A stretch of DNA of 64,000 nucleotides, from contig JBDHHP010000012.1 of assembly GCA_039589275.1 (NCBI GenBank), positions 2,573 to 66,572 on the forward strand, given 5' to 3'. This DNA is from Gemmatimonadota bacterium (lineage in GTDB: Bacteria; Gemmatimonadota; Gemmatimonadetes; Gemmatimonadales; GWC2-71-9). Shown here piece after piece: positions 36,177 to 57,811 of this stretch (position 1 is its first letter; every line of letters starts with the position of its first letter). A program made the translations under genes and the position numbers. The notes beneath the pieces were generated by a model that was given only the letters and a program-made list of their open reading frames with translations, had not been told where the DNA came from and did not search any database.

Positions 36177-37673
36177 ATGAGGTTTGAGCGGAAGCTGCTC
36201 TGGAGCATCACGGCCCTGGCAGTGGTCGGAGTGGTGGGAGCGTGTGACGACGAAGATGATGATGGATTTATCGTCGAGCCGGAGGACGATCCGCCCACCA
36301 TTCAGTTGGCTGCCCCGAATGGAGGCGAAGCCATCCAGCCGGGTGCCGATGTCGAGATCTCTTGGACCGCGAGCGACGACAACCAGGTCGTCGGTGTGGA
36401 TCTCTACTACGTCGTTGGGGGAAACGAGGCCGCCATTGCGACGGACGTTACCGGCTCCAGCTATACGTGGACTGTTCCGAACACGAACGTCTTCGGTGTC
36501 ACTGTCAAGGCCGTTGCTTCGGACGATGCGGCACAGACCGGCGAAGATGCTAGTGATGCGGTATTTGCTATCATTGGACACTCGATGCGGGGCTACGTGG
36601 GGAGTCAGACCTGTCGCAACTGCCACGTGGAATACCACAATGACATGCTGGCCTCGGGTCATCCCTACAAGCTGAACAAGGTAGTGAATGGGCAGCCACC
36701 CACCTATCCGAGCAGCTCGGTTCCCACACCTCCACCAGGAGCTTCGCGCGACGCGTGGAGCGACGTCGCGTATGTCATTGGGGGATACGGTTGGAAAGCA
36801 CGCTTCATCACGGCCGATTCCGGCTGGATAATGACCGACGCGATGGACTTAGTGAACGTGCAGTACAACCTACCGCGCGCCGACATCGGAGGTGGGCTCG
36901 CTGCCGAGTGGGTTTCGTACCACTCGACCGACACGGAACGCAAACCCTATGACTGCGGTAGTTGCCATACGACGGGTTGGCAGAGTTTCGCAGATAACGG
37001 TGGGGTGAATCAGGATGGTCTCGCAGGCATTCTTGGCACTTGGGAGGAGACGGGCATTACATGTGAGGAGTGTCACGAACCTGGTGCGGATCACGTGGCC
37101 AGCCAATCTGCGTCTGACATGACTGTTGACAACAGCTCCGCGCTGTGTGGTAGTTGCCATATACGCGGTGATGCAGCGACGATCCCCGCCAGTGGCGGCT
37201 TCATCCGCCACCACGAGCAATACAATGAACTGTTGGCCGGAGCGCACACAGGTGGCAGCATGGATGTCGGATGCAACGATTGCCACGATCCGCACGTTGG
37301 TGTGTTGTATGGCAACGACGTAGCGGGCGGCATAGTGGCTACGTGCGAGAGCTGCCATCCGGATCAGGTGGCGAACAACAGCCACAACAATCTGCCGACC
37401 TGCATCGACTGCCACATGCCGAGGGCAACCAAATCGGCAAGGGCGAATCACAGATTTGAGGGTGACGTTCGCACGCACCTGTTCGCCATAAGCACCGACA
37501 CCACGGCGAACATGTTTAATGCGGATACAACGTTCGTCGATAAAGGGTACGTGACCCTCGATTTCGCATGTTACTCATGCCACACCGATCCGGTTACCCT
37601 GGAGGGCGGCGGGTTCACCGAGCAGAGCTTGACGGCATTGGCGACCGAGGCCGACGGCATCCACACTCCCTGA
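36177..37673 (+). CDS. Octahaem c-type cytochrome lipoprotein with N-terminal acidic linker and Ig-like domain
   Basis: AAAGGAG lies upstream of ATG 36177. Lipobox VVGAC. Eight CxxCH motifs (CRNCH, CGSCH, CEECH, CGSCH, CNDCH, CESCH, CIDCH, CYSCH). Confidence 0.9.
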   Translation: MRFERKLLWSITALAVVGVVGACDDEDDDGFIVEPEDDPPTIQLAAPNGGEAIQPGADVEISWTASDDNQVVGVDLYYVVGGNEAAIATDVTGSSYTWTVPNTNVFGVTVKAVASDDAAQTGEDASDAVFAIIGHSMRGYVGSQTCRNCHVEYHNDMLASGHPYKLNKVVNGQPPTYPSSSVPTPPPGASRDAWSDVAYVIGGYGWKARFITADSGWIMTDAMDLVNVQYNLPRADIGGGLAAEWVSYHSTDTERKPYDCGSCHTTGWQSFADNGGVNQDGLAGILGTWEETGITCEECHEPGADHVASQSASDMTVDNSSALCGSCHIRGDAATIPASGGFIRHHEQYNELLAGAHTGGSMDVGCNDCHDPHVGVLYGNDVAGGIVATCESCHPDQVANNSHNNLPTCIDCHMPRATKSARANHRFEGDVRTHLFAISTDTTANMFNADTTFVDKGYVTLDFACYSCHTDPVTLEGGGFTEQSLTALATEADGIHTP

Positions 37674-37717
37674 ACCAGGATCCAGGTTCTTGCCGGCGTC
37701 GATGGTGTTCCATAACC

Positions 37718-37750
37718 AGGGCGACCCTCACTTGGGGTCGCCCTCCTATT
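37718..37750 (+). terminator. Rho-independent-type hairpin after the octahaem gene
   Basis: AGGGCGACCC (37718-37727) pairs with GGGTCGCCCT (37735-37744), 7-nt loop, followed by CCTATTT. Confidence 0.5.
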
Positions 37751-37768
37751 TCACGTACGAATGATCCC

Positions 37769-38566
37769 ATGCTGCGACACGCTTCACGTTGTGGCGCGCC
37801 CGCCCTAGCCTTTCTGCTCCTGCTATCGGCGTGCACTCAGCGGATTGAATCCAGTCGGACGGAAGAGAGAAACGGCCTTGTCTGCCAGACTAGCTCCATT
37901 GAGCCATTCACGGGGGTTGTCTACTCGCCGTTCGAGGCCTCGGGCCAGGACTCAGCTACAGTTTCTTATCGCGACGGATCGAGGCACGGGCCCTCTCGCC
38001 GGTACTCGAGGAATGGTAAGGACCTGAGCCTAACCAACTACGTGCGCGGTGAGAGGGAAGGGGAGAGTGTTGAGTGGTTCGAAGACGGTCAGGTGAGGCG
38101 CAGTGAGGAGTTCGTCGCAGGTCGCAGCGAGGGAACGTTGCGCGAGTGGGCGGCGGACGGGCAGCTGCTCAGGGAGCAGGGCATGAGCGGTGGCAAGCCA
38201 CACGGCCTTTCACGTGTCTGGTTCCCCGGAGGCGCAAAGAAGCGAGAGGCCAGGTATCGGGACGGCGCCCTACAGGGGCAATTCGTGGAATGGTACGAAA
38301 ACGGTCGGAAGAAGGTCGAGCGTTCGTATCGCGGTGGATTTCTGGATGGGTCGGTAGCTGAGTGGTACGAGTCGGGCGCAAGACGAAGCGAAGCACGCTG
38401 GGAGTCAGGAGAGCCGGACGGCTCAATCACCGAGTGGTTCGAAAACGGTAACAAGCGCGTCGAAGGTTTCTATGAGAGCGGGGAGGCGGTGGAACTCAGG
38501 ATATGGGATGAGAAAGGCAACCCGGTGGCCTCCCCGAAGCACATGAGGCCGGGGCGGGGGACATGA
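37769..38566 (+). CDS. MORN-repeat (MORN_2/YwqK-type) lipoprotein
   Basis: Start at ATG 37769. Lipobox LLLSAC. Repeated G...EW(F/Y)E(N/D/S)G modules (VEWFEDGQ, REWAADGQ, VEWYENGR, AEWYESGA, TEWFENGN). Confidence 0.82.
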   Translation: MLRHASRCGAPALAFLLLLSACTQRIESSRTEERNGLVCQTSSIEPFTGVVYSPFEASGQDSATVSYRDGSRHGPSRRYSRNGKDLSLTNYVRGEREGESVEWFEDGQVRRSEEFVAGRSEGTLREWAADGQLLREQGMSGGKPHGLSRVWFPGGAKKREARYRDGALQGQFVEWYENGRKKVERSYRGGFLDGSVAEWYESGARRSEARWESGEPDGSITEWFENGNKRVEGFYESGEAVELRIWDEKGNPVASPKHMRPGRGT

Positions 38567-38729
38567 TTGCTCGCGCTGGCTAAACAGAGGCTGAAGAAGC
38601 CTTAAGGGAAAGGAGCACCACTTGCTCTCAACCTTCATAATTAGGATACTAGTGAAAGGGAGTACTCTCATTCGCTTGTCCTCGAGGTTGACCGTGCAGA
38701 CTCACTCGTTGCCTTCGCATGGCTTGCTC

Positions 38730-40196
38730 ATGGTTGCCCTGGCCTCGGTCGCGCTCGGCACGGCCTGTTCCAATGACGACATCGTCTATGACGACATGGA
38801 ACTATTCAATCCGCCGCCGGACGGGGGGTCGGCCTTCATGGGCTACTACGTGACGGAGGAGAAACAGACTGTTTGTGGCAACTGCCATGCTGACAAACAG
38901 GTCTCTTGGATTGAGACAGCGCACGCGGATGCGTGGGCCGGTCTCCAGAGTTCTGACCACGCAGAATCATTCTGCGAACCGTGCCACACCGTGAATGAGC
39001 TGGGTAACTCTACGACTGCCGCCAGCGGACACAATGTTGTGGCGGACCCCTCCTATCACGACGTACAATGTGAGTCGTGTCACGGCCCGGGGATCGACCA
39101 TCTGGGTGATCCGGCAAGAGCCAAGCCACTCGCGTCTATCGCGGCTGCCGAAGATGCATCGAATGGGTGCGGAGAGTGTCACAATGGGGAACACCATCCG
39201 TTCGTGGAACAGTGGGCGGAGTCTGCTCACGGTAACGTGGACTCCTATCCGCAGGGCCGGGATGACTGCAAGGAGTGTCATGAAGGGCAAACGGCTCTCG
39301 AGGTTCAGTTCGGCGTGACATCTGACAACGCCGAAAAGGCCAGCGGTGAGCTGATGGACATCACTTGCGCAGTCTGCCATGATCCGCACGGAGGTCCGTA
39401 TCCGAGCCAGCTTCGTGCACCTGTAGCTGCGGCAGACGAGAACAACCTTTGTGTCAAGTGCCACAACAACCGGGCGGCTCCGGAGGTCGCCTCCACTCGC
39501 GGCGCACACGCTGCTCAGGGACCACTGGTGTTCGGTGAAGGTGTGGGCTGGATACCTGCGGGGTTCGAGGCCCTGGACGGCCTCACGGGGGCCCATGGAA
39601 ACCCACAGGCCAATCCAGGACTCTGTGCCACGTGCCATGTGGCTCCTTTCGCAGTGACGCAGCCTGAGTTTTTCCAGAGCGTCGGGCACAGCTTCGAGGC
39701 GATTCCGTGTCTGGATGTGGACGGCATTCCTGAGCCGGGTCCCTGCAACAACGACGAACGCAGCTTCGTTGCGTGTACGGCCTGCCATGGCAGCGAGGCC
39801 AACTCGCAGGCGATTTATGAGGGCTTCATTGAGGAAATCGGGGAGCTGCTGGCCCAAATCTGGGTCGACTTGAATGGAGACGCACATATCGATCCCGCTC
39901 CCACAGACGCGGGATTGCTGGCCGAGGTCATTGCATCCGCGGGCGCGGGAGAGTTGGATGCGTCTGACTCGGTGATCACGTATGCCGAGGGCGTGCTCTT
40001 CAACGCGCAGTTGGCAGCAACCGATGAAACGCCGCGGTTCTGGGATACGCATGTTGTGGTTGCGCCTGACGACACCGTGAACATCACTGCGCATGCCGCC
40101 AGTGGGAACGGAGTGCACAACCCACCTTTCTTGGAGGCATTGCTGAGGGCGTCGATCACTGCCGGTGCGGACCACTATGGGGTCGCGCCTAGATAG
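38730..40196 (+). CDS. Nonahaem c-type cytochrome, lipoprotein-like (start ambiguous within 38622-38730)
   Basis: Nine CxxCH motifs (CGNCH, CEPCH, CESCH, CGECH, CKECH, CAVCH, CVKCH, CATCH, CTACH). Lipobox-like LGTAC after MVALASVA. A ~130-aa haem-free C-terminal domain. Confidence 0.88.
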   Translation: MVALASVALGTACSNDDIVYDDMELFNPPPDGGSAFMGYYVTEEKQTVCGNCHADKQVSWIETAHADAWAGLQSSDHAESFCEPCHTVNELGNSTTAASGHNVVADPSYHDVQCESCHGPGIDHLGDPARAKPLASIAAAEDASNGCGECHNGEHHPFVEQWAESAHGNVDSYPQGRDDCKECHEGQTALEVQFGVTSDNAEKASGELMDITCAVCHDPHGGPYPSQLRAPVAAADENNLCVKCHNNRAAPEVASTRGAHAAQGPLVFGEGVGWIPAGFEALDGLTGAHGNPQANPGLCATCHVAPFAVTQPEFFQSVGHSFEAIPCLDVDGIPEPGPCNNDERSFVACTACHGSEANSQAIYEGFIEEIGELLAQIWVDLNGDAHIDPAPTDAGLLAEVIASAGAGELDASDSVITYAEGVLFNAQLAATDETPRFWDTHVVVAPDDTVNITAHAASGNGVHNPPFLEALLRASITAGADHYGVAPR

Positions 40197-40377
40197 TCGA
40201 ATCGACAGACGTGGGCGATCCGGTGCCGCCGAATAGAGGCACCGACGTAGGGCAGGGATTGAAGTAATCGGGCCCCGTCCGATAACCAGGCGGGGTCCTC
40301 AACGTAGAGGGCCTCGATGCTCACGGAGTCCGTCCAGCGCGAGACAAGGTCATGAAGCGGGTGTGCGCGAGGGTGCA

Positions 40378-43224
40378 ATGATGCGAGAGGTGCTGTACGT
40401 GGTCCTGGGGGCGCTTGGCGTGAGTGCTCTGGTGGGAGAGATCGCGTCTGCACAGGAGAGCGACACGTGTCTCATGTGCCATGGGAACGCGTCGATGTTC
40501 CAGGGTGCCCAGGCTGCACGAATGGTCATCTCCGAAGAGACGCATCTGGGCTCCGCACACGGTGCCGCGGGAATGCAGTGTACAACCTGCCACATGGGAC
40601 TGGAGTTTCCCCATCCGGAGGGTCGGTTCAAAGTCGAGTGTGGCATGTGCCACGCCGAGCAGGGCAGGCAACACGAGGAGTCGCTTCACGGTCAGGCCGC
40701 CGCCCGGGGCGATGTCCTTGCGCCGAGTTGTCAGGATTGCCACGGGACCCATGGCGTTCTGTCTCACACCAATCCCCGGTCGCGTACCCGTGTAATGAAC
40801 ATTCCCTTCCTGTGTGGTGAATGCCACAAGGAGGGGGCTCCAGTCGCTCGCTCTCGAAACATCCCTCAGGACTCAATCCTTACGCACTACTCTCAGTCCA
40901 TTCATGGTGAAGGGCTGTTCAGACAGGGACTTACTGTTACGGCCGTGTGTACCTCGTGTCACACTTCGCACTTCATCCTGCCACACACTGACGCGCGGTC
41001 CAGCATCCATCGAACCAAGGTCGCCATGACTTGCGAGCAGTGTCACGCTCAGATCGAGGAGGTGCACCGCCAGGTAATCGAGGGAAGGCTTTGGCGGGAG
41101 CGACCTGATGTGATACCCGTTTGTGTCGACTGCCATGCTCCTCACGAGGTGCGCGGAGTGCTCTACGAGGCGGGCGCCGCGAACCAGGACTGCTTCCGCT
41201 GCCACAGCGACCCTGGGCTGAGGGGTGTGGCAATGGGGGACACCGTCTCGCTCTATGTGGACGAGGAGGTGTACAACTCGACTGCGCACTCCGGTACAGC
41301 CTGCGCGCAGTGTCACACGGACGCTAGCTCGACGCTGACTCGACCCTGTGCTACCATCTCCTCGCCGGTTGACTGTGGTATCTGCCACGCGGAGCGGGTC
41401 GCGGAGCACAGCGCCAGCATACATGGCCGACTGGCGGCCGATGGCGATCCGGATGCGCCGACTTGCCTCGACTGTCACGGCCAGCACGGAATACAGAAGA
41501 GGGTGGTGCCGACTTCGCCCACCTTCCCTCGCAATGTCCCTGATCTGTGTGCGAACTGCCATCGACAAGGGGAAACAGCGGCGGCCCGGGTCGAATCGAA
41601 TCACCTGGCTAGGCGTCTAGACCAGACCGCCCTTGATCCGCTGGCAGCCCTGGAGGAGGCGCTGGAATCAGCGCCGCCCGTGGAGAGTTACGGGATGAGC
41701 ATCCACGGCAAGGGGCTTTACGAGAGCGGCCTCCTGGTCACTGCCACATGTCCGAGTTGCCATTTGGCGCACGCGGTGCAGCCGCGTACTGACCCCACAT
41801 CGTCGATTCACAGGTCCAACATCTCCGCCACCTGCGGCGCCTGTCATCACGGCATAGCCGAAGTGTTCATGACCAGTGTTCACTGGGTTGATGATGGAGA
41901 GAACGGCGACGACGGTGACAAGCCGACCTGCGAGAGCTGCCACACGTCACACAGTATCAGCCGCACCGACCTAGGCGACTTCCGCCTCACGATGATGAGT
42001 CAGTGTGGCAACTGCCACATCGAGGAAGCGGAGACCTTCTTCGACACATTCCATGGTAAGGTCTCGCGGCTAGGCGATGAGGGTGCCGCCAAATGCTACG
42101 ACTGCCATGGGACCCACGACATCCATCCGACTGCGGATCCGCGATCGCTTTTGAGCCGACGCAACGTGGTCGGCACCTGCGCCAAATGCCACCCCGGTGC
42201 CAACCGTAGATTCACCGGATATCTCACCCATGCCACGCACCACGACCCGGACAGGTATCCGTTCCTATTCTGGGCCTTCTGGGGCATGACTTCGCTCTTG
42301 GTGGGCACGTTGACCTTCGCCACCGTCCACACACTGGCATGGTTGTGGCGGCTATGGCGATCGCCAGGTGATTGGAGGAGACACAAGTCCCTGCCTGGTG
42401 AGGCGCTGTACAAGCGATTCACCACCTTCCAGCGCAGTCTTCACCTCGTGATGCTTCTGGCGTTCTTCACTCTGGCCATCACCGGAATGGTGCTGAAGTT
42501 CTCCTACGCGGTTTGGGCCCAGACTGTCTCATCGGTGCTCGGTGGGTTCACCACCACTGGGTTCCTCCACCGGTTAGGCGCGGTGGCATTGATCGTAGTG
42601 TTCGTTATCCACCTAGGCGACGCGTGGCGCCAGCGCAGGGAATCGGGTAAGAGATGGCTCCAATTCATCTTTGCCGAGAATTCGCTGATCTTCAACAAGA
42701 ACGATTTGAAGGAGCTTGGCGCCTCCTTGAAGTGGTTCTTGGGTAGGGGCCCTCGGCCCCTGTACGGGCGTTACACCTACTGGGAGAAGTTTGACTACTT
42801 CGCCGTTTTTTGGGGGATGATAGTGATCGGTTCGACGGGATTGGTGTTATGGTTCCCCGTGTTCTTCACGAATGTGATCCCGGGTTGGTGGGTGAACGTG
42901 GCTACCATCATACACAGCGACGAGGCGTTGCTGGCGGTGGGCTTCATCTTCACGGTCCACTTCTTCAATACCCACTTCCGGCCCGACAAATTTCCGATGG
43001 ATCCGGTGATCTTCACCGGCCGCGTGCCTGTCGAAGAACTCAAGGTCGACAAACCACGGGAGTACGCGGAACTGGTGAAGGACGGCACACTGGAGGAGCA
43101 CCTAGTGCACCCTTACCCGCGGAAGCTGGAGCTGTTTTTCAAGGTCTTCGGCTTTGCAGCACTGGGGGTTGGGCTGACGTTGATAGCCTTGATCCTGTAT
43201 GCTATGCTGTTTGGCTATAGATGA
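40378..43224 (+). CDS. 19-haem c-type cytochrome fused to a C-terminal b-type-cytochrome-like membrane domain (CbcL-like architecture)
   Basis: Signal peptide MMREVLYVVLGALGVSALVGEIASA. 19 CxxCH motifs counted. The C-terminal ~330 aa has 5-6 TM helices with conserved-looking His (ATVHTLAW, RSLHLVMLL, FLHRLGAVALIVVFVIHL, IIHSDEALLAVGFIFTVHFF). Confidence 0.9.
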   Translation: MMREVLYVVLGALGVSALVGEIASAQESDTCLMCHGNASMFQGAQAARMVISEETHLGSAHGAAGMQCTTCHMGLEFPHPEGRFKVECGMCHAEQGRQHEESLHGQAAARGDVLAPSCQDCHGTHGVLSHTNPRSRTRVMNIPFLCGECHKEGAPVARSRNIPQDSILTHYSQSIHGEGLFRQGLTVTAVCTSCHTSHFILPHTDARSSIHRTKVAMTCEQCHAQIEEVHRQVIEGRLWRERPDVIPVCVDCHAPHEVRGVLYEAGAANQDCFRCHSDPGLRGVAMGDTVSLYVDEEVYNSTAHSGTACAQCHTDASSTLTRPCATISSPVDCGICHAERVAEHSASIHGRLAADGDPDAPTCLDCHGQHGIQKRVVPTSPTFPRNVPDLCANCHRQGETAAARVESNHLARRLDQTALDPLAALEEALESAPPVESYGMSIHGKGLYESGLLVTATCPSCHLAHAVQPRTDPTSSIHRSNISATCGACHHGIAEVFMTSVHWVDDGENGDDGDKPTCESCHTSHSISRTDLGDFRLTMMSQCGNCHIEEAETFFDTFHGKVSRLGDEGAAKCYDCHGTHDIHPTADPRSLLSRRNVVGTCAKCHPGANRRFTGYLTHATHHDPDRYPFLFWAFWGMTSLLVGTLTFATVHTLAWLWRLWRSPGDWRRHKSLPGEALYKRFTTFQRSLHLVMLLAFFTLAITGMVLKFSYAVWAQTVSSVLGGFTTTGFLHRLGAVALIVVFVIHLGDAWRQRRESGKRWLQFIFAENSLIFNKNDLKELGASLKWFLGRGPRPLYGRYTYWEKFDYFAVFWGMIVIGSTGLVLWFPVFFTNVIPGWWVNVATIIHSDEALLAVGFIFTVHFFNTHFRPDKFPMDPVIFTGRVPVEELKVDKPREYAELVKDGTLEEHLVHPYPRKLELFFKVFGFAALGVGLTLIALILYAMLFGYR

Positions 43225-44813
43225 GTGTTAAGTTCGAGGGCCCCGGTGCCACCCGCCGGGCTACTGACCTACCGCGATCGCTTCAAATGCGGGGAGGCTT
43301 CATGAGGGCATCTAGGCTGGTTGTTACCTTGGCCGCGGGGGCTTTGGTGTGGGCAACACCGCTGTCCGGTCAAGGCTACCGCGTGCGGTTGGATGCACGG
43401 TATCAGGGTGTATCCTATCGCGGAGTCATGCTCGACAGCATCCCGATTGACGCAGCAGTGCTGAGCGGCGACGGATCTTACTTCACGTCTGACGGCTTCG
43501 CGGCAAATTGTCCGCAAGCTGCCGAGTACTGCACGTACTTCCGGTCGGGCCCCGAGTTGAGGGGTCATCCCATCGTTACCACCGTGGCTGCGGATGTCTG
43601 GGGCTTTGGTGTGCAGGGTCTGCGATTCAGCTCCAAGGCTCGTGTGGGCACCGACCTAGCCAGCGGGGACATTTGGCCCGGCGTAAATCCCGAGCTGCAG
43701 CTGCTGGAGGGGTTTCTGGAATACTCGGCGGGTCCGGTAGTCGCGCAGGCGGGCAGGACTCATGTCACGTCACGGCTCGGCTGGACTGGCTTTGATGGAG
43801 CCAAGGCCGAGGTCCGACCGTTGGGTCGCAAGCTGAAACTGCTTGGATACGGCGGTTGGGGCCTGGCGCGCGGCGTGGCGTTGCCCGTCACGAGCAGCGC
43901 CCTGAACCCGCTGGACGATCTCCAGCCTCGGGACCGTCAAATCATAGTGGGCGCCGGCGCCGGATGGGCGGTGACGGGCGTGTTCGGTCAGGCGGTTTGG
44001 CAGCGGGAGATAGATCCGGGTTCCGACGACCTGGTGTCCGACTACCTCAACTTCGATGTGGACTTCAGGCCATCCGACAACCTTAACGTTACAGGCGGGG
44101 CATACTACGATCTGGCGGCTGGCCTGTGGGGAACGGCGAACGCTCAGGCTACCTACATTGCCCCACGCGGCATGGGTCGGTTGACTCTGGGGGCGAGGCG
44201 ATATCGTCCGCGGTTCGACCTGTGGACCATTTGGGGTGCATTCAGCCCGGTGGCATACAACGCGGGATTCGGGTCTCTGTCGCTTTCTCCGGTGGGTGGA
44301 TTGGAGCTGCGAACGTCAGGAGAGATCTACGAGTTCGATGACGCTGAGGCGGACCGCCGCTTCACGCAGATCGAATCGGATGGGTGGCGTTGGACCCTCG
44401 GGGCAAGCTACAACGGGATGGAGGCTTGGCGGTTCCACAGCAACTACTGGGTAGACAGGGGACCGGGGTCCCGCTCCGTCGGAGTTGATGCACTGGCGAC
44501 TTTCATTCCGGTCGATGACTTGTACGTGACGGCTCAAGTCGAGCGGCTGGTCCGACCTCTCGAGTTTCGATTCAACGAAGCGGACGTTTGGTCGGCTGGC
44601 CTTCGGCTCGACTACGAGACAGCACAAGGGGTTCGCATCAACGCAGAGCTGCGTCGCTACGAGGAGGTCCGCGAGCGGCTGGATGCATCCTACGTGAATT
44701 GGGATCAGTGGCGCCTCAACCTAGGACTGTCCTTCGCGTTTGGAACAGACACGCGGGGAGGTGGTCTCCACCCGGCAATCCTCCGCATTCCGACGGGGAG
44801 GGGGATACGATGA
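43221..44813 (+). CDS. Predicted outer-membrane beta-barrel protein (porin-like partner of the cytochromes)
   Basis: ATG 43221 overlaps the upstream stop (ATGA). Internal signal peptide MRASRLVVTLAAGALVWATPLSGQG. Alternating hydrophobic, aromatic/Gly-rich strands throughout. Barrel-closing-like LNLGLSFAF lies near the C-terminus. Confidence 0.7.
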   Translation: MSVKFEGPGATRRATDLPRSLQMRGGFMRASRLVVTLAAGALVWATPLSGQGYRVRLDARYQGVSYRGVMLDSIPIDAAVLSGDGSYFTSDGFAANCPQAAEYCTYFRSGPELRGHPIVTTVAADVWGFGVQGLRFSSKARVGTDLASGDIWPGVNPELQLLEGFLEYSAGPVVAQAGRTHVTSRLGWTGFDGAKAEVRPLGRKLKLLGYGGWGLARGVALPVTSSALNPLDDLQPRDRQIIVGAGAGWAVTGVFGQAVWQREIDPGSDDLVSDYLNFDVDFRPSDNLNVTGGAYYDLAAGLWGTANAQATYIAPRGMGRLTLGARRYRPRFDLWTIWGAFSPVAYNAGFGSLSLSPVGGLELRTSGEIYEFDDAEADRRFTQIESDGWRWTLGASYNGMEAWRFHSNYWVDRGPGSRSVGVDALATFIPVDDLYVTAQVERLVRPLEFRFNEADVWSAGLRLDYETAQGVRINAELRRYEEVRERLDASYVNWDQWRLNLGLSFAFGTDTRGGGLHPAILRIPTGRGIR

Positions 44814-45724
44814 GATCGATCACTCTCTTGGCCCTTCCGGCCCTGGCCGCCGTGGCACTCGGCGCAGCGTGGGAGCCGGTGCGCTCCTCCAATTCGAGCA
44901 AGCAGTTCCCGCACGAAAAGCACATGGACCTGTTTCCATGCAGCGCATGTCACGGAGGACTGACCCAATCGGGTGGTGCGCCGTATCCGCAACCGACTTT
45001 TTGTGCCGCCTGCCACGACGGCAACATACAGGTAGAAATTGACTGGACTCCTCCGGAAGCCCGGCCGCAGTCCAACCCGCGCTTTGAGCACGCCACTCAC
45101 CTCGAGTTGGCAGGCAATGAGTGCTCGGACTGTCACGTTGTGACCGGAGAGCTGCCGGTTGCCGAACAATGCCGCGACTGCCATAGCCGGTCAGAATCGC
45201 TCAGTAACGCCTCGGTAGTCCACGGTACGGAGTTCCGTAACCGCCACGCTTCAGACGCGGCTGCTGCACCCGAGAATTGCGCATCGTGCCACCTGCGTGC
45301 CGACTGCCTCGACTGCCACCGCCCAGGTGCTGCGTCAGGGTCGCCAGGATACCATCCTGCGAACTTCCTTTCCGAACACCCGACAGCCGCATACTCTCGG
45401 TCACAGTCTTGCAGTGACTGCCACAACGTGCGTTCGTACTGCGCGGCGTGTCACGCTCAAGCTGGGCTCACTGCAGCAGGAGCCATAGGAGACGGGTATC
45501 ACGACGCCAAGCAGAACTTCGTCTTGGGCCACGGACAGGCCGCGCGGCAGAGTCTGGAGTCGTGTGTCGCGTGCCATTCGCAGGACGACTGCCTACGGTG
45601 CCATTCGGCGCTCACGGGACGGATCAACCCCCACGGACCGGGTTTCGACGCCGATGATCTGCGGGAAAGGACTCCGTCGATGTGTGCGGTGTGCCATGGA
45701 TCCACGATTCCAGGAGGCGGGTAA
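44810..45724 (+). CDS. Undecahaem c-type cytochrome (c3/c7-like repeats), secreted
   Basis: ATG 44810 overlaps the barrel-gene stop (ATGA). Signal peptide MRSITLLALPALAAVALGAA. 11 CxxCH motifs in 304 aa. Confidence 0.9.
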   Translation: MRSITLLALPALAAVALGAAWEPVRSSNSSKQFPHEKHMDLFPCSACHGGLTQSGGAPYPQPTFCAACHDGNIQVEIDWTPPEARPQSNPRFEHATHLELAGNECSDCHVVTGELPVAEQCRDCHSRSESLSNASVVHGTEFRNRHASDAAAAPENCASCHLRADCLDCHRPGAASGSPGYHPANFLSEHPTAAYSRSQSCSDCHNVRSYCAACHAQAGLTAAGAIGDGYHDAKQNFVLGHGQAARQSLESCVACHSQDDCLRCHSALTGRINPHGPGFDADDLRERTPSMCAVCHGSTIPGGG

Positions 45725-45760
45725 GTCGGCTTAAGGACCCGACGTTGTAGCGGTCCAAAG

Positions 45761-45778
45761 TGTCCTACAAATAGGACA
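45761..45778. promoter_or_regulatory. Perfect palindrome TGTCCTA-CAAA-TAGGACA upstream of the tetrahaem gene
   Basis: 7-bp arms with a 4-nt spacer, 212 nt upstream of ATG 45990 and 37 nt after the stop of the 11-haem gene. Confidence 0.25.
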
Positions 45779-45989
45779 ACCGGCCGGCCGGGTCGGGGCG
45801 AATTATGCCCATGGAGGGATCTCTAGGGGCCAAGTTCGGTACAAAACTGGCCGATTATCGCTTTGTCGTGCGACCTCCGGATCTCAGGTATGGTCTTTGA
45901 CCTTCCCTTTCGATGCGGTAACCGCTTGAGCGATGCGTGAAAAACAAGAGTGTTGCACCATATCAGCTACCGAACCTGGAGATTGAACT

Positions 45990-46403
45990 ATGAATAGTCG
46001 CCGTAACTTCGCCCTCGCTGGCGCCGTCGTGCTGGTGACTCTGTGGTCTACGCCGGTGCTGGCTCAGGGCCGGCCGAAGCCGACCAGCCACGACATCGCT
46101 GGGCGAGAACAGTGCTTGATGTGTCACCGGGCCGGTGCTATGGAACCGGTGCCCGACGCTCCTGCCGACCACGAGAATAGACCCAACGAGACATGCCAGT
46201 GGTGTCACGCACCGGACTCACCAATGCTGACGGGCGACGCGACCTCGATGCCCCACCCTAACGAGGGACGGGAGCAGTGCATGATGTGCCATAAGGCTGG
46301 CGCGATGGAGCCGGTGCCCGACGCGCCAGCGAGTCACGAAGGCAGGGACACCGCATTCTGCACGTTGTGCCACAAGCCCGCCGGCTCGGTAAGTCCCAAC
46401 TGA
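45990..46403 (+). CDS. Tetrahaem c-type cytochrome made of two NapB-like dihaem repeats
   Basis: Signal peptide MNSRRNFALAGAVVLVTLWSTPVLAQG. The module H..x.GREQC(L/M)MCH(R/K)AGAMEPVPDAPA.HE.R....C..CH occurs twice, 55 aa apart. Confidence 0.88.
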   Translation: MNSRRNFALAGAVVLVTLWSTPVLAQGRPKPTSHDIAGREQCLMCHRAGAMEPVPDAPADHENRPNETCQWCHAPDSPMLTGDATSMPHPNEGREQCMMCHKAGAMEPVPDAPASHEGRDTAFCTLCHKPAGSVSPN

Positions 46404-54741: not shown

Positions 54742-56787
54742 ATGACAACACTCGGACAATTGGCGCTGTGGCTGGCGCTGCTGATCGCAGCGTGGGGCAG
54801 CGCAGTCGGTGTTTACGGAGGGCTGACTACTCGCCCCGAGTTGATACAGAGCGCCCGCCGCAGTAGCTACGCCCTGTTCGGCATCGTCTCCGTGGCCTCG
54901 GTTTGCCTGATAGTCGCGCTGCTCCGTCACGACTTCAACGTCCAATACGTGTGGTCGTACACCAGTCGCAATCTCCCGACCCCTTATGTGCTCTCGGCCT
55001 TTTATGGCGGACAGTCGGGCAGCTTGCTGTTCTGGGCGTTCGTACTGACCATGTTTGCGGCTGCCGCGCAATGGCTCACTCCGAGGCGATACGACCATCT
55101 AATGCCGTATGTCGCGGCCGTCACCTCTGCGGTAACGCTGTTCTTTGTGGCGGTTGTGCTGTTCGCGTCCAATCCGTTCGAGCGTCTGCCCTTCACGCCT
55201 CCCGACGGCAACGGTCTCAACCCGCAATTGCAGAACCCTGGAATGGTGGTGCACCCGCCGATGCTGTACCTGGGTTATATCAGCATCACAATTCCATTCG
55301 CGTTTGCGGTTGCCGCTCTCATCACGAAGCGGCTTGATACGGGATGGCTGCACGCCATCCGACGCTGGACACTCGTCTCCTGGATATTCCTTTCGGTCGG
55401 AATCGTTCTCGGCATGTGGTGGGCTTATGTGGAGCTGGGTTGGGGCGGCTACTGGGCCTGGGATCCGGTGGAGAATGCCAGCTTCCTGCCCTGGCTCACC
55501 ATGACTGCCTTTCTCCATTCGGTCATGATTCAGGAGAAGCGCGGCATGCTGAAGAAGTGGAACATGGTTCTCATAGTCTTGAGTTTCATGTTGTCAATCT
55601 TCGGTACCTTCATCACACGCAGCGGGATCATCTCCAGCGTGCATTCGTTCGCGCAGTCGTCGGTCGGATACTTCTTCTTGGTCTTCCTGGTGGCATCCGC
55701 GATCGCCCTCGCGTGGCTGATCTGGTCCCGACTACCATACCTCGAACCGGAAGCTCAGCTCGAGAGCATGGTGTCGCGCGAGGCGAGCTTCCTGTTCAAC
55801 AACCTACTGTTGGTTGGAATGGCTTTTTCGGTGCTGTGGGGCACCCTGTTTCCGATCATATCTGAGCTGGTTCGGGGATCTCAGGTGACCGTCGGGCCGC
55901 CATTCTTCAACCAGGTCAACATACCGATAGGGTTGGCTTTGCTGGGGTTAACCGGAGTGGGACCGCTAATTGCCTGGCGCAAGGCAAGTACGAGGAACCT
56001 GCAACGCCAGTTCACTGGACCGGTGCTCGGTGCGCTGGTTGTGGTCGCGATACTCATGGCCATTGGCCTGCGTGATTTCTACGCGACGATAGCGCTTGCG
56101 CTTTGCGCCTTCGTGACAACCACGGTCAGTCAGGAGTTCCTGCGTGGGGTAGGTGCGCGGCACCGGTTGCACGGTGAGAACTACGCTGTTGCCCTTGCCC
56201 GGCTAGTGGGCCGCAACAGACGACGCTATGGAGGTTATATCGTCCACGTTGGGATCGTGATCATGTTCGTGGGCTTCACTGGTGCCGCGTTCAAGAAGGA
56301 GATGGAGGCGTCGCTCAGACCGGGGGAGTCGGTGACGCTGCGGTCGGCGTTCGGTTACGACTATACCTTCACTCACGTCGGCGTATCTCAATACGAACAG
56401 CTAAACCGGTTTGTGTCTGCCGCGAGTGTCGAAGTGGCTCGCGGTGATTCGCGGCTCGGCATCATGACGAGTGAGAAGCGCCAATACTGGAACTCGTTCC
56501 AAGAACCGACGTTCCAACCGGCCACTGAGGCTGCGATTGAAAGCGGCTTAAGGGAGGACGTGTACATTGTGTTCGCCGGCGCGGTCGAAGGTACGGAGGA
56601 GGCAGTCTACAGGTTCACACTGAATCCGCTGGTGTGGTGGCTGTGGTTTGGTGGTGTCGTGTTGGTCATCGGTGGCGTTGTAACGATGTGGCCCGGAGGA
56701 GGTCCCACTCGCGCTTCACTGCGGCGGGCTGGTGTAGGCGGCTACCAGGTTCAATTGGTCGACAGAGAGGCCAAGGCGAGTGTCTGA
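54742..56787 (+). CDS. ccmF: Cytochrome c-type biogenesis protein CcmF (haem lyase/handling)
   Basis: 681 aa, polytopic. WWD motif GWGGYWAWDPVENASFLPWL. Confidence 0.93.
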   Translation: MTTLGQLALWLALLIAAWGSAVGVYGGLTTRPELIQSARRSSYALFGIVSVASVCLIVALLRHDFNVQYVWSYTSRNLPTPYVLSAFYGGQSGSLLFWAFVLTMFAAAAQWLTPRRYDHLMPYVAAVTSAVTLFFVAVVLFASNPFERLPFTPPDGNGLNPQLQNPGMVVHPPMLYLGYISITIPFAFAVAALITKRLDTGWLHAIRRWTLVSWIFLSVGIVLGMWWAYVELGWGGYWAWDPVENASFLPWLTMTAFLHSVMIQEKRGMLKKWNMVLIVLSFMLSIFGTFITRSGIISSVHSFAQSSVGYFFLVFLVASAIALAWLIWSRLPYLEPEAQLESMVSREASFLFNNLLLVGMAFSVLWGTLFPIISELVRGSQVTVGPPFFNQVNIPIGLALLGLTGVGPLIAWRKASTRNLQRQFTGPVLGALVVVAILMAIGLRDFYATIALALCAFVTTTVSQEFLRGVGARHRLHGENYAVALARLVGRNRRRYGGYIVHVGIVIMFVGFTGAAFKKEMEASLRPGESVTLRSAFGYDYTFTHVGVSQYEQLNRFVSAASVEVARGDSRLGIMTSEKRQYWNSFQEPTFQPATEAAIESGLREDVYIVFAGAVEGTEEAVYRFTLNPLVWWLWFGGVVLVIGGVVTMWPGGGPTRASLRRAGVGGYQVQLVDREAKASV

Positions 56788-57364
56788 CCTCGATTCCGTA
56801 TCGCGCCGGGACCTGCTGGCACTTGCAGCGGCGTTCTTGCCGTCGTCGCTGACTCAGGGCACGGGGCAAGGCGATTCCGGGATCGGCAGGCTGCCGCGGC
56901 CAGGTATGGCGGGGATGTCCCGGGAACGCATCACAGATTATGAGAATGATCCTCTCATAATCGGAATCGAGGAGCGGTTGCGGTGCACCTGCGGCTGCAA
57001 CCTCGATGTGTATACCTGTAGGACCACCGACTTCACTTGCCAGACCTCGCCGGCGATGCACCGTGAGGTAGTGGGTCTCGTTGAGCAGGGCCTGAGCTCT
57101 CAAGAGGTGCTCGACGAGTTCGTTGCGCGTCACGGTGAGCTTGTATTGATGGCGCCGCGCAAAGAAGGGTTCAATATCCTTGGTTACGTTCTGCCGGGCA
57201 CGGCCATTTCGGCGGTTGGAATAGCTATGCTGTGGATCTTGGCCCGACGTACCAGGTATGGGAATCCGATCGTGGCCGATGGTGCCCGTGAGACAGACGG
57301 GCTCAACATGTCGAGCGGCGATGCTGAAAGGCTGAAGGCTGAGCTGGCTGACTTGGACAATTGA
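56780..57364 (+). CDS. CcmH-like protein with atypical Cys motif and Tat-like signal
   Basis: GTG start overlaps the ccmF end. N-terminal SRRDLLALAAAF. LRCTCGCNLDVYTC replaces the canonical LRCxxC. CcmH-like EVVGLVEQGLSSQEVLDEFVARHGELVLMAP is followed by a TM helix. Confidence 0.7.
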   Translation: MSDLDSVSRRDLLALAAAFLPSSLTQGTGQGDSGIGRLPRPGMAGMSRERITDYENDPLIIGIEERLRCTCGCNLDVYTCRTTDFTCQTSPAMHREVVGLVEQGLSSQEVLDEFVARHGELVLMAPRKEGFNILGYVLPGTAISAVGIAMLWILARRTRYGNPIVADGARETDGLNMSSGDAERLKAELADLDN

Positions 57365-57367
57365 GAA

Positions 57368-57811
57368 ATGGCTGAACTACTAGCCGGGATCTTTGTTGCA
57401 CTGGCGGCGTTGGCTTTGGTTCTGGAGCCGCTCCTCAGGCCGGCGCGGGCATACGCCGCGCATGGACAGCCGTCTGTGCTTGATGATATCGACTTCACGG
57501 ACCCGCAGGAATCCGATTCCCCTAAGGTCCGGGCACTGATGGCCCTCAAAGAGATTGAGTTCGACCGGGCCACGGGCAAGCTGTCTGATGACGATTACGC
57601 CACCCTCAAGGCGAGATACTCAGCAGTGGCGTTGGCAGCCATAAAGGCAGAGGATGAGATAAACGAACCGGACGCCCGCCCGGAGCAAGACCCCGCCGAA
57701 GCCGCCATCGAACGAGCGCGCGGTCAGGCCAAGTATTGCCCCGAGTGCGGCACCAAGCTGCCAGCGGTCGCAAGGTTCTGCGGCGAATGCGGTACAAAGG
57801 CGGGTCAGTAG
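57368..57811 (+). CDS. CcmI-N-terminal-like membrane protein with C-terminal zinc ribbon
   Basis: N-terminal TM helix (LLAGIFVALAALALVLEPLL), then EIEFDRATGKLSDDDYATLKARY typical of the CcmI/CycH N-domain, and a C-terminal YCPECGTKLPAVARFCGECGTK. Confidence 0.6.
   Translation: MAELLAGIFVALAALALVLEPLLRPARAYAAHGQPSVLDDIDFTDPQESDSPKVRALMALKEIEFDRATGKLSDDDYATLKARYSAVALAAIKAEDEINEPDARPEQDPAEAAIERARGQAKYCPECGTKLPAVARFCGECGTKAGQ

Follow-up and report, generated by a model that had tools for sequence, protein, structure and literature searches.

A 19-haem cytochrome c fused to an FdnI-type cytochrome b, a probable electron gate beside a porin-cytochrome-like gene pair in a Gemmatimonadota genome

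The window analysed here is a 64,000-nucleotide stretch of a Gemmatimonadota bacterium genome (GenBank assembly GCA_039589275.1, contig JBDHHP010000012.1, positions 2,573 to 66,572), and the gene under study lies at 40378-43224 on its forward (+) strand, as do the other features of the protein and of its gene cluster described below. The open reading frame (ORF) is uninterrupted and encodes 948 aa, with the same gene call in two public assemblies; together with the Pfam and NCBIfam matches it identifies a 19-haem cytochrome c fused to an FdnI-type cytochrome b of the CbcL/MtrH/MtoC family. An alternative GTG start is possible upstream, at 40363, whereas the public calls take 40378. An initial annotation, made from the sequence alone, had placed 19 CxxCH motifs within the N-terminal ~620 aa, and the count is indeed exactly 19, at residues 31-601; none of the variants CxxxCH, CxxxxCH or CxxCK occurs in the 948-aa protein. 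Composition-matched shuffles of the first 620 aa yield a mean of 0.19 CxxCH motifs and a maximum of 3. All 19 motifs are kept in 116 of 120 close homologues, and in these 120 proteins all 38 motif cysteines are invariant, as are at least 19 His residues outside the motifs, which are thus enough to supply a distal ligand for bis-His ligation of every haem. A hydropathy peak at residues 4-27 marks the hydrophobic core of a predicted signal peptide (aa 1-25, 40378-40452), with a cleavage site placed from the sequence after A-S-A and before Q26. One database cluster representative, P0001, listed as 100% identical, carries H313Y where the window encodes His313 (41314-41316), the proximal His of haem 10; this variant thus keeps 18 intact motifs, perhaps through a natural loss, perhaps owing to sequencing or assembly.

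Internal duplication has given the 19-haem domain an 8 + 8 + 3 haem architecture. The repeat units were delimited by Smith-Waterman self-alignment against a null of shuffles that hold every CxxCH in place, and the top-scoring alignment sets residues 23-395 against 265-605. Unit 1 (aa 23-264, haems 1-8, 40444-41169) and unit 2 (aa 265-530, haems 9-16, 41170-41967) share 35% identity, with a score of 408 against 89 +/- 16 in the shuffles (z ~20). The tail (aa 531-610, haems 17-19, 41968-42207) aligns with either unit at z ~9 and forms a partial third repeat related to haems 3-5 and 11-13. BLASTP of the 948-aa protein against itself returned no off-diagonal matches. The recurring modules from which the initial annotation had argued for a duplication were all recovered: the C.DCHG.H motif followed by C..CH three times (118/146, 363/391 and 573/601, each pair 28 aa apart), and the longer SIHG.GL...VTA.C.SCH...SSIHR...TC..CH module twice (174-223 and 441-490). 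Within unit 2, the linker between haems 13 and 14 measures 67 aa here versus 45 aa in most relatives. A part of it (41575-41700, aa 400-440) is predicted to be helical at low confidence, and a minority of close relatives also have linkers of 55-70 aa.

The membrane domain (aa 626-948, 42253-43221) is defined by matches to PF01292 and to the FdnI profile and fold. Six hydrophobic helices are found in the C-terminal ~320 aa, which are also helical in the AlphaFold2 model (predicted local distance difference test, pLDDT, about 70-90); transmembrane (TM) helices TM2-TM5 correspond to the FdnI-like four-helix di-haem b core, with one additional helix on either side. The PF01292 score of the full protein is marginal (31.4 bits against a gathering cutoff of 30.1) and rises to 36.8 bits for the isolated domain, while 30 of 30 cross-phylum relatives pass the model (best E 1e-11). 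When a membrane-domain profile built from 30 genomes was compared with all Protein Data Bank (PDB) sequences, the only match was E. coli FdnI (1kqf_C, E 8e-5); a PDB sequence search with the whole protein gave weak multihaem matches only (28pb_A, NrfB) and missed FdnI. Foldseek of the AlphaFold2 model likewise gave 1kqf_C as the sole significant match (probability 1.00, TM-score 0.78 normalised to FdnI, root-mean-square deviation 3.7 A) at a sequence identity of ~18%, the next match, the cytochrome b of E. coli Hyd-1, being far weaker. Averaged over the 19-haem protein, the model has a pLDDT of 67 and a predicted TM-score (pTM) of 0.46, and the placement of its domains relative to one another is thus a low-confidence prediction.

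Seven His residues of the membrane domain are invariant, and four of them align His-to-His with FdnI: His689 (codon 42442-42444) with His18, His731 (42568-42570) with His57, His846 (42913-42915) with His155, and His861 (42958-42960) with His169. In FdnI we take His18 and His169 to be the ligands of the cytoplasmic-side haem b, and His57 and His155 those of the periplasmic-side one. Lysine and arginine together number 7, 12 and 9 in the cytoplasmic loops and 0 and 0 in the periplasmic loops, a pattern common to the family. Because of this positive-inside distribution and the N-terminal signal peptide, the haem c domain is clearly predicted to lie in the periplasm. The initial annotation had described five to six TM helices with His residues placed as in FdnI/HydC-type cytochromes b; this description stands, with six helices, four FdnI-aligned invariant His, a PF01292 match above the gathering score and a topology that puts the c haems on the periplasmic, not the cytoplasmic, side.

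The protein thereby combines a periplasmic N-terminus with multiple CX2CH motifs, a six-TM C-terminus with a HydC/FdnI-like b domain, and homology to the CbcL/MtrH/MtoC family. It shares 37% identity (E 8e-105) with a protein that has the Geobacter CbcL motif map and 33% identity (E 3e-98) with a Magnetococcales protein that has the MtoC/MtrH motif map, in keeping with the kinship to CbcL-type cytochromes that had been suspected; both comparators were picked by the motif-map fingerprint of Table S2 in PMC6295460, not by name. That survey (Front Microbiol 2018) reported CbcL/MtrH/MtoC homologues in 15 phyla, of 416-1034 aa and with 3-23 CX2CH motifs, mostly with six TM helices and conserved TM His residues, and 28.6-100% identical within the family. 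Its Table S2 contains ~20 proteins with 19 motifs (from Caldithrix, Ignavibacteria, Bacteroidetes, Acidobacteria, Handelsmanbacteria, Syntrophaceae and others), among them the Gemmatimonadetes protein MAF27600.1 (951 aa, 19 haems), whose motif and TM map is that of our protein with the exception of one linker. Our protein therefore falls within a family, and a 19-haem subclass of it, that were already known, and the unusualness implied by the initial annotation is not supported. A literature search on 19-haem cytochromes returned nothing specific, and no paper was found that takes up the subclass outside Table S2 of PMC6295460.

More than 4,300 homologues were found, the best 120 of which are all full length and 61-83% identical. 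At least 581 species-representative genomes contain relatives at 51-68% identity, and the 19-haem class is present in Gemmatimonadota, Acidobacteriota, Woeseiaceae, Zixibacteria, Ignavibacteria and other lineages, with a haem spacing vector that is nearly invariant across phyla. Searched alone, the membrane domain falls into 2,393 clusters at 50% identity, whose full-length members carry 3-22 haems, most commonly 9 and 11. An 11-haem class (Opitutus, Lacunisphaera) corresponds to the 19-haem map less one 8-haem unit, and a 23-haem protein to the same map with an added 4-haem block. Larger forms were seen at L049 and L053 (21 haems), at L054 (23 haems) and in P0261 (22 haems), the last of which looks like the whole 11-haem domain duplicated in tandem, its spacing vector occurring twice; given these variants, the haem module has therefore expanded more than once. 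In many genomes the 19-haem gene adjoins a paralogue of 620-690 aa with 11 haems and an FdnI-type b domain, ~30% identical to our protein (L001:7735-9729, L013:7835-9865, L019:7589-9640, L032:12806-14680, L049:12843-14876, L078:7735-9699 on the reverse strand, and L080:6742-8712); no such 11-haem cytochrome b-fused paralogue is found in the 64-kb window. In an Ignavibacteria metagenome-assembled genome (MAG; L071:6356-9220), the 19-haem part (671 aa) and the cytochrome b part (278 aa) are encoded by two neighbouring ORFs, either through a natural split or through a frameshift, and the locus also has a 423-aa barrel candidate and 14-, 9-, 6- and 4-haem genes.

A single cysteine lies outside the CxxCH motifs, Cys324 (codon 41347-41349), nine residues ahead of haem 11; in the register of the repeats it takes the slot of the conserved His79 of unit 1. 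All of the 120 close and 79 cross-phylum relatives examined, which are 19-21-haem proteins from at least eight phyla, keep this Cys, and it is not present in the 11-haem paralogues. The invariant His residues suffice for all haems without Cys324, provided that H618, H621 or H622 act as ligands. Judging from its conservation and register, Cys324 may serve as a ligand of a His/Cys-coordinated haem of very low potential. The invariance of this residue seems to be unreported.

The 19-haem gene belongs to a run of same-strand genes at 36177-46403. Upstream lie a 498-aa cytochrome c with 8 haems, a lipobox (VVGAC) and an Ig-like Big_7 domain (36177-37673) and a 524-aa 9-haem cytochrome c with a lipobox-like LGTAC N-terminus (38622-40196), both assigned from family matches and haem counts and both with MtrC-like domain matches; between them lies a 265-aa MORN-repeat protein (PF07661) with lipobox LLSAC (37769-38566). 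Directly downstream, a 503-aa protein with a signal peptide (43302-44813), identified by AlphaFold2 and Foldseek as an outer-membrane beta-barrel of about 23-24 strands, is followed by a cytochrome c of 304 aa and 11 haems, also with a signal peptide (44810-45724), identified by its haem count and by matches to PF22113 (MtrC/MtrF domain II/IV) and cytochrome c7; the ATG of the 11-haem gene overlaps the stop codon of the barrel gene. The run ends with a 137-aa tetrahaem cytochrome c (45990-46403; family match and haem count), a candidate periplasmic carrier. We compared this neighbourhood with 80 related loci. Homologues of the barrel and of the 11-haem protein are present in 19 of these, nearly all from Gemmatimonadota, and in 17 of the 19 the barrel lies directly downstream of the 19-haem gene and is followed by the 11-haem gene. 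Homologues of the 9-haem protein (38-48% identity) occur near the 19-haem gene in ~14 related loci and those of the tetrahaem cytochrome in 17; the MORN-repeat protein was not found in the related loci, nor is the 8-haem protein conserved there beyond generic multihaem similarity. A scan of the cluster for promoters and terminators gave counts no better than shuffles. Elsewhere in the window, the region 54742-57811 holds a gene for a haem lyase of the CcmF/NrfE type (434 bits to TIGR00353, below its cutoff) and, after it, two small genes, one with a weak NrfF-like match; these are likely to be the cytochrome c maturation machinery for the cluster. Two papers on Gemmatimonadota genomes (PMC10469786, PMC11316326) do not mention the 19-haem gene; the one on marine Gemmatimonadota (PMC11316326) gives generic FeGenie matches only, and states that annotation cannot separate iron oxidation from iron reduction.

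The AlphaFold2 model of the barrel is all-beta (pLDDT 80, pTM 0.72) and its Foldseek matches are to outer-membrane barrels in general, of which the 24-strand FimD usher gives the highest query coverage; MtrB is at rank 37 among hundreds of generic barrel matches. The 503-aa protein has no Pfam or NCBIfam family; its relatives are at least 593 hypothetical proteins, the named members of which are from Gemmatimonadota. The 11-haem protein scores below the DmsE/MtrA decahaem model. The locus thus places an outer-membrane barrel of at least 20 strands beside a multihaem cytochrome small enough to fit inside it, the arrangement of a porin-cytochrome complex (PCC), and on the strength of the model and the gene order the pair is predicted to work like a PCC without being a member of the MtrB/MtrA or OmbB/OmaB families.

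Altogether, we consider with moderate confidence that the protein acts as a CbcL-type electron gate of the inner membrane, between the quinone pool and the periplasm, which in this lineage would feed a porin-cytochrome-like conduit of the outer membrane, most likely in the outward direction, as in mineral or metal respiration. In such a scheme the protein would be exported by the Sec system and its signal peptide cleaved, after which Ccm would attach 19 c haems to the periplasmic N-terminal domain, while the six-TM C-terminal domain would act as the membrane anchor. Two b haems would be stacked across the membrane, one held by H731 and H846 on the periplasmic side and one by H689 and H861 on the cytoplasmic side, and (mena)quinol would be oxidised near the latter, as in FdnI. 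Electrons would then pass from quinol through the two b haems to the 19-haem chain, which arose by tandem duplication of an 8-haem unit, and from there to the barrel and 11-haem cytochrome as an MtrAB-style conduit, either directly or via the tetrahaem protein. The conduit would finally deliver them to the putative lipoprotein multihaem cytochromes and to extracellular acceptors, for example Fe(III) or Mn(IV) minerals. For CbcL, the reduction of periplasmic cytochromes has been described as coupled to proton release in the cytoplasm (10.1101/2022.08.31.506072). By analogy with FdnI and CbcL, a putative quinone site near the cytoplasmic-side haem means that outward flow would leave its protons in the cytoplasm, with little energy conserved, whereas inward flow would build proton-motive force. 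A bolder elaboration, which we regard as improbable, would have the 19 haems form an extended rigid wire that bridges the periplasm and docks on the barrel and the 11-haem protein, so that three adjacent genes would encode an unbroken, shuttle-free chain of ~30 c haems leading from the quinone pool to the cell surface, in which the Cys324 haem of the second repeat, with His/Cys ligation, is a low-potential gate; the gate, as doubtful as the wire it would belong to, would be switched on or off by the ambient redox potential, compare the reported potential-dependent inactivation of CbcL. What suggests it is how many haems there are, that the genes adjoin one another and that Cys324 does not vary.

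Several points weigh against an outward-directed gate that feeds a conduit. Proposed quinol oxidases (CbcL, MtrH) and quinone reductases (MtoC) share one family with no distinguishing motif (PMC6295460), and the direction of electron flow is therefore not readable from the sequence. The barrel and the 11-haem protein have no sequence-level homology to MtrB, MtrA, OmbB or OmaB. Outside Gemmatimonadota the 19-haem gene often stands alone or beside the 11-haem paralogue, without a barrel, so the link to a porin is lineage-specific and not intrinsic to the protein. In addition, the members of the 19-haem subclass have only been tabulated and are known from sequence alone, the Geobacter sulfurreducens CbcL was represented in our comparison by a motif-map lookalike and not by GSU0274 itself, and the model of the haem domain is moderately confident (pLDDT 35-85). 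In one alternative the flow is inward: outside the cell, Fe(II), Mn(II), reduced minerals or a partner cell would supply electrons to the conduit, the 19-haem chain would pass them on, and the b domain would reduce quinone at the cytoplasmic face, as proposed for MtoC; with an FdnI-like geometry this would build proton-motive force in the manner of a redox loop. Fe(II) is an uphill donor to menaquinone at neutral pH unless a high-potential quinone is present, and neither carbon-fixation nor Cyc2-type genes turned up in the cluster. In favour of inward flow are the presence in the family of MtoC from Fe(II) oxidisers (PMC6295460), the about equal similarity of our protein to MtoC/MtrH-type (E 3e-98) and CbcL-type (E 8e-105) proteins, the inward operation of the structural template FdnI, and the published statement that iron oxidation and reduction are indistinguishable by annotation (PMC11316326). 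In a comparable survey the PCC-bearing MAGs were mostly heterotrophs inferred to export electrons (PMC13264449), and we hold inward flow to be plausible but rather unlikely.

In a further alternative the protein serves no extracellular electron transfer at all. It would oxidise quinol and be a general periplasmic electron hub or buffer, its 19 haems a capacitor, for soluble reductases of substrates such as nitrite, N2O or sulfur compounds, and the barrel and its cytochromes would be a separate module. Multihaem or barrel neighbours are lacking in many loci of Acidobacteriota, Woeseiaceae and others (L028, L029, L047, L062, L068), the family is present in at least 581 species genomes that include lineages without known metal respiration, and nitrate, nitrite and N2O respiration are common in Gemmatimonadota MAGs (PMC10469786; PMC11316326). 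However, the barrel and 11-haem genes directly follow in 17 related loci with short or overlapping junctions, no genes for periplasmic reductases lie in the cluster, and the characterised relatives CbcL, MtrH and MtoC are all tied to extracellular electron transfer; a hub is thus an improbable account of this locus. Finally, the FdnI fold, a weak TIGR01583 match and the JGI names of many homologues would be consistent with a gamma (cytochrome b) subunit of formate dehydrogenase or hydrogenase. The domain is, however, fused to 19 c haems and has two additional TM helices, and such a subunit is extremely unlikely. It was rejected as a candidate, the TIGR01583 score being 42.6 bits against a cutoff of 115.85 and no formate dehydrogenase or hydrogenase catalytic genes being found around the cluster. 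The labels "formate dehydrogenase cytochrome b subunit" on homologues are misnomers.

Inner-membrane quinol dehydrogenases are the starting point of extracellular electron transfer, and few of them have been studied (CymA, ImcH, CbcL, CbcBA). For marine-sediment Gemmatimonadota, members of an abundant and mostly uncultured phylum, the cluster described here is a candidate pathway for metal or mineral respiration or for electron uptake, where published surveys of genomes from the phylum list generic iron-gene matches only. The 19-haem class is no oddity but a widespread and strongly conserved form. Knowledge of the protein family itself is unchanged, its architecture having been catalogued in 2018 with a Gemmatimonadetes example included; what is added here is the residue-level support for the FdnI relationship, the 8 + 8 + 3 repeat model, a Gemmatimonadota cluster with a new barrel family, and the invariant Cys324.

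Among known systems, the neighbourhood resembles MtrCAB and Pcc in having a gene for a large outer-membrane barrel beside one for a ~300-aa cytochrome with 10-11 haems, together with multihaem cytochromes that are predicted lipoproteins. It differs from these systems in that family-level sequence matches are absent and that the barrel has ~24 strands; MtrB has 26. FdnI (PDB 1KQF chain C) is a separate subunit of 217 aa fed by an Fe-S subunit, whereas our protein carries the bundle in one chain with a multihaem c domain and adds one TM helix per side. With MtoC/MtrH (Dechloromonas, Gallionella, Rhodoferax) our protein shares the membrane domain, a last-five-haem spacing of [31,25,30,28], and a gene cluster that also encodes an outer-membrane barrel and a multihaem cytochrome of the periplasm (mtoAB/mtrAB in their case); those proteins have 9 haems and true MtrA/MtrB homologues as partners, to which the barrel and 11-haem protein of the window have no detectable sequence homology. 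Like CbcL (GSU0274), it joins a periplasmic multihaem c N-terminus to a six-TM HydC/FdnI-type di-haem b C-terminus (PMC6295460; 10.1101/2022.08.31.506072) and has no Fe-S, flavin or molybdopterin partner, and the 37% identity to the protein with the CbcL motif map spans the last six haems and the whole membrane domain. CbcL differs in having 9 haems, spaced [23,25,23,24,29,28,43,28], against 19 in an 8 + 8 + 3 arrangement; His745, which never varies within the 19-haem class, is replaced by Val in the CbcL-type protein, and the region around Cys324 has no counterpart in CbcL. The closest likeness is to the tabulated 19-haem homologues (MAF27600.1, Caldithrix abyssi Cabys_319 and Ignavibacteria OGU58019), which have an essentially identical architecture, with 906-952 aa, six TM helices and a spacing of [37,23,30,28,45,28,30,23,37,24,30,28,45,28,30,25,30,28], and from which our protein differs only by the linker between haems 13 and 14, 67 versus 45 aa.

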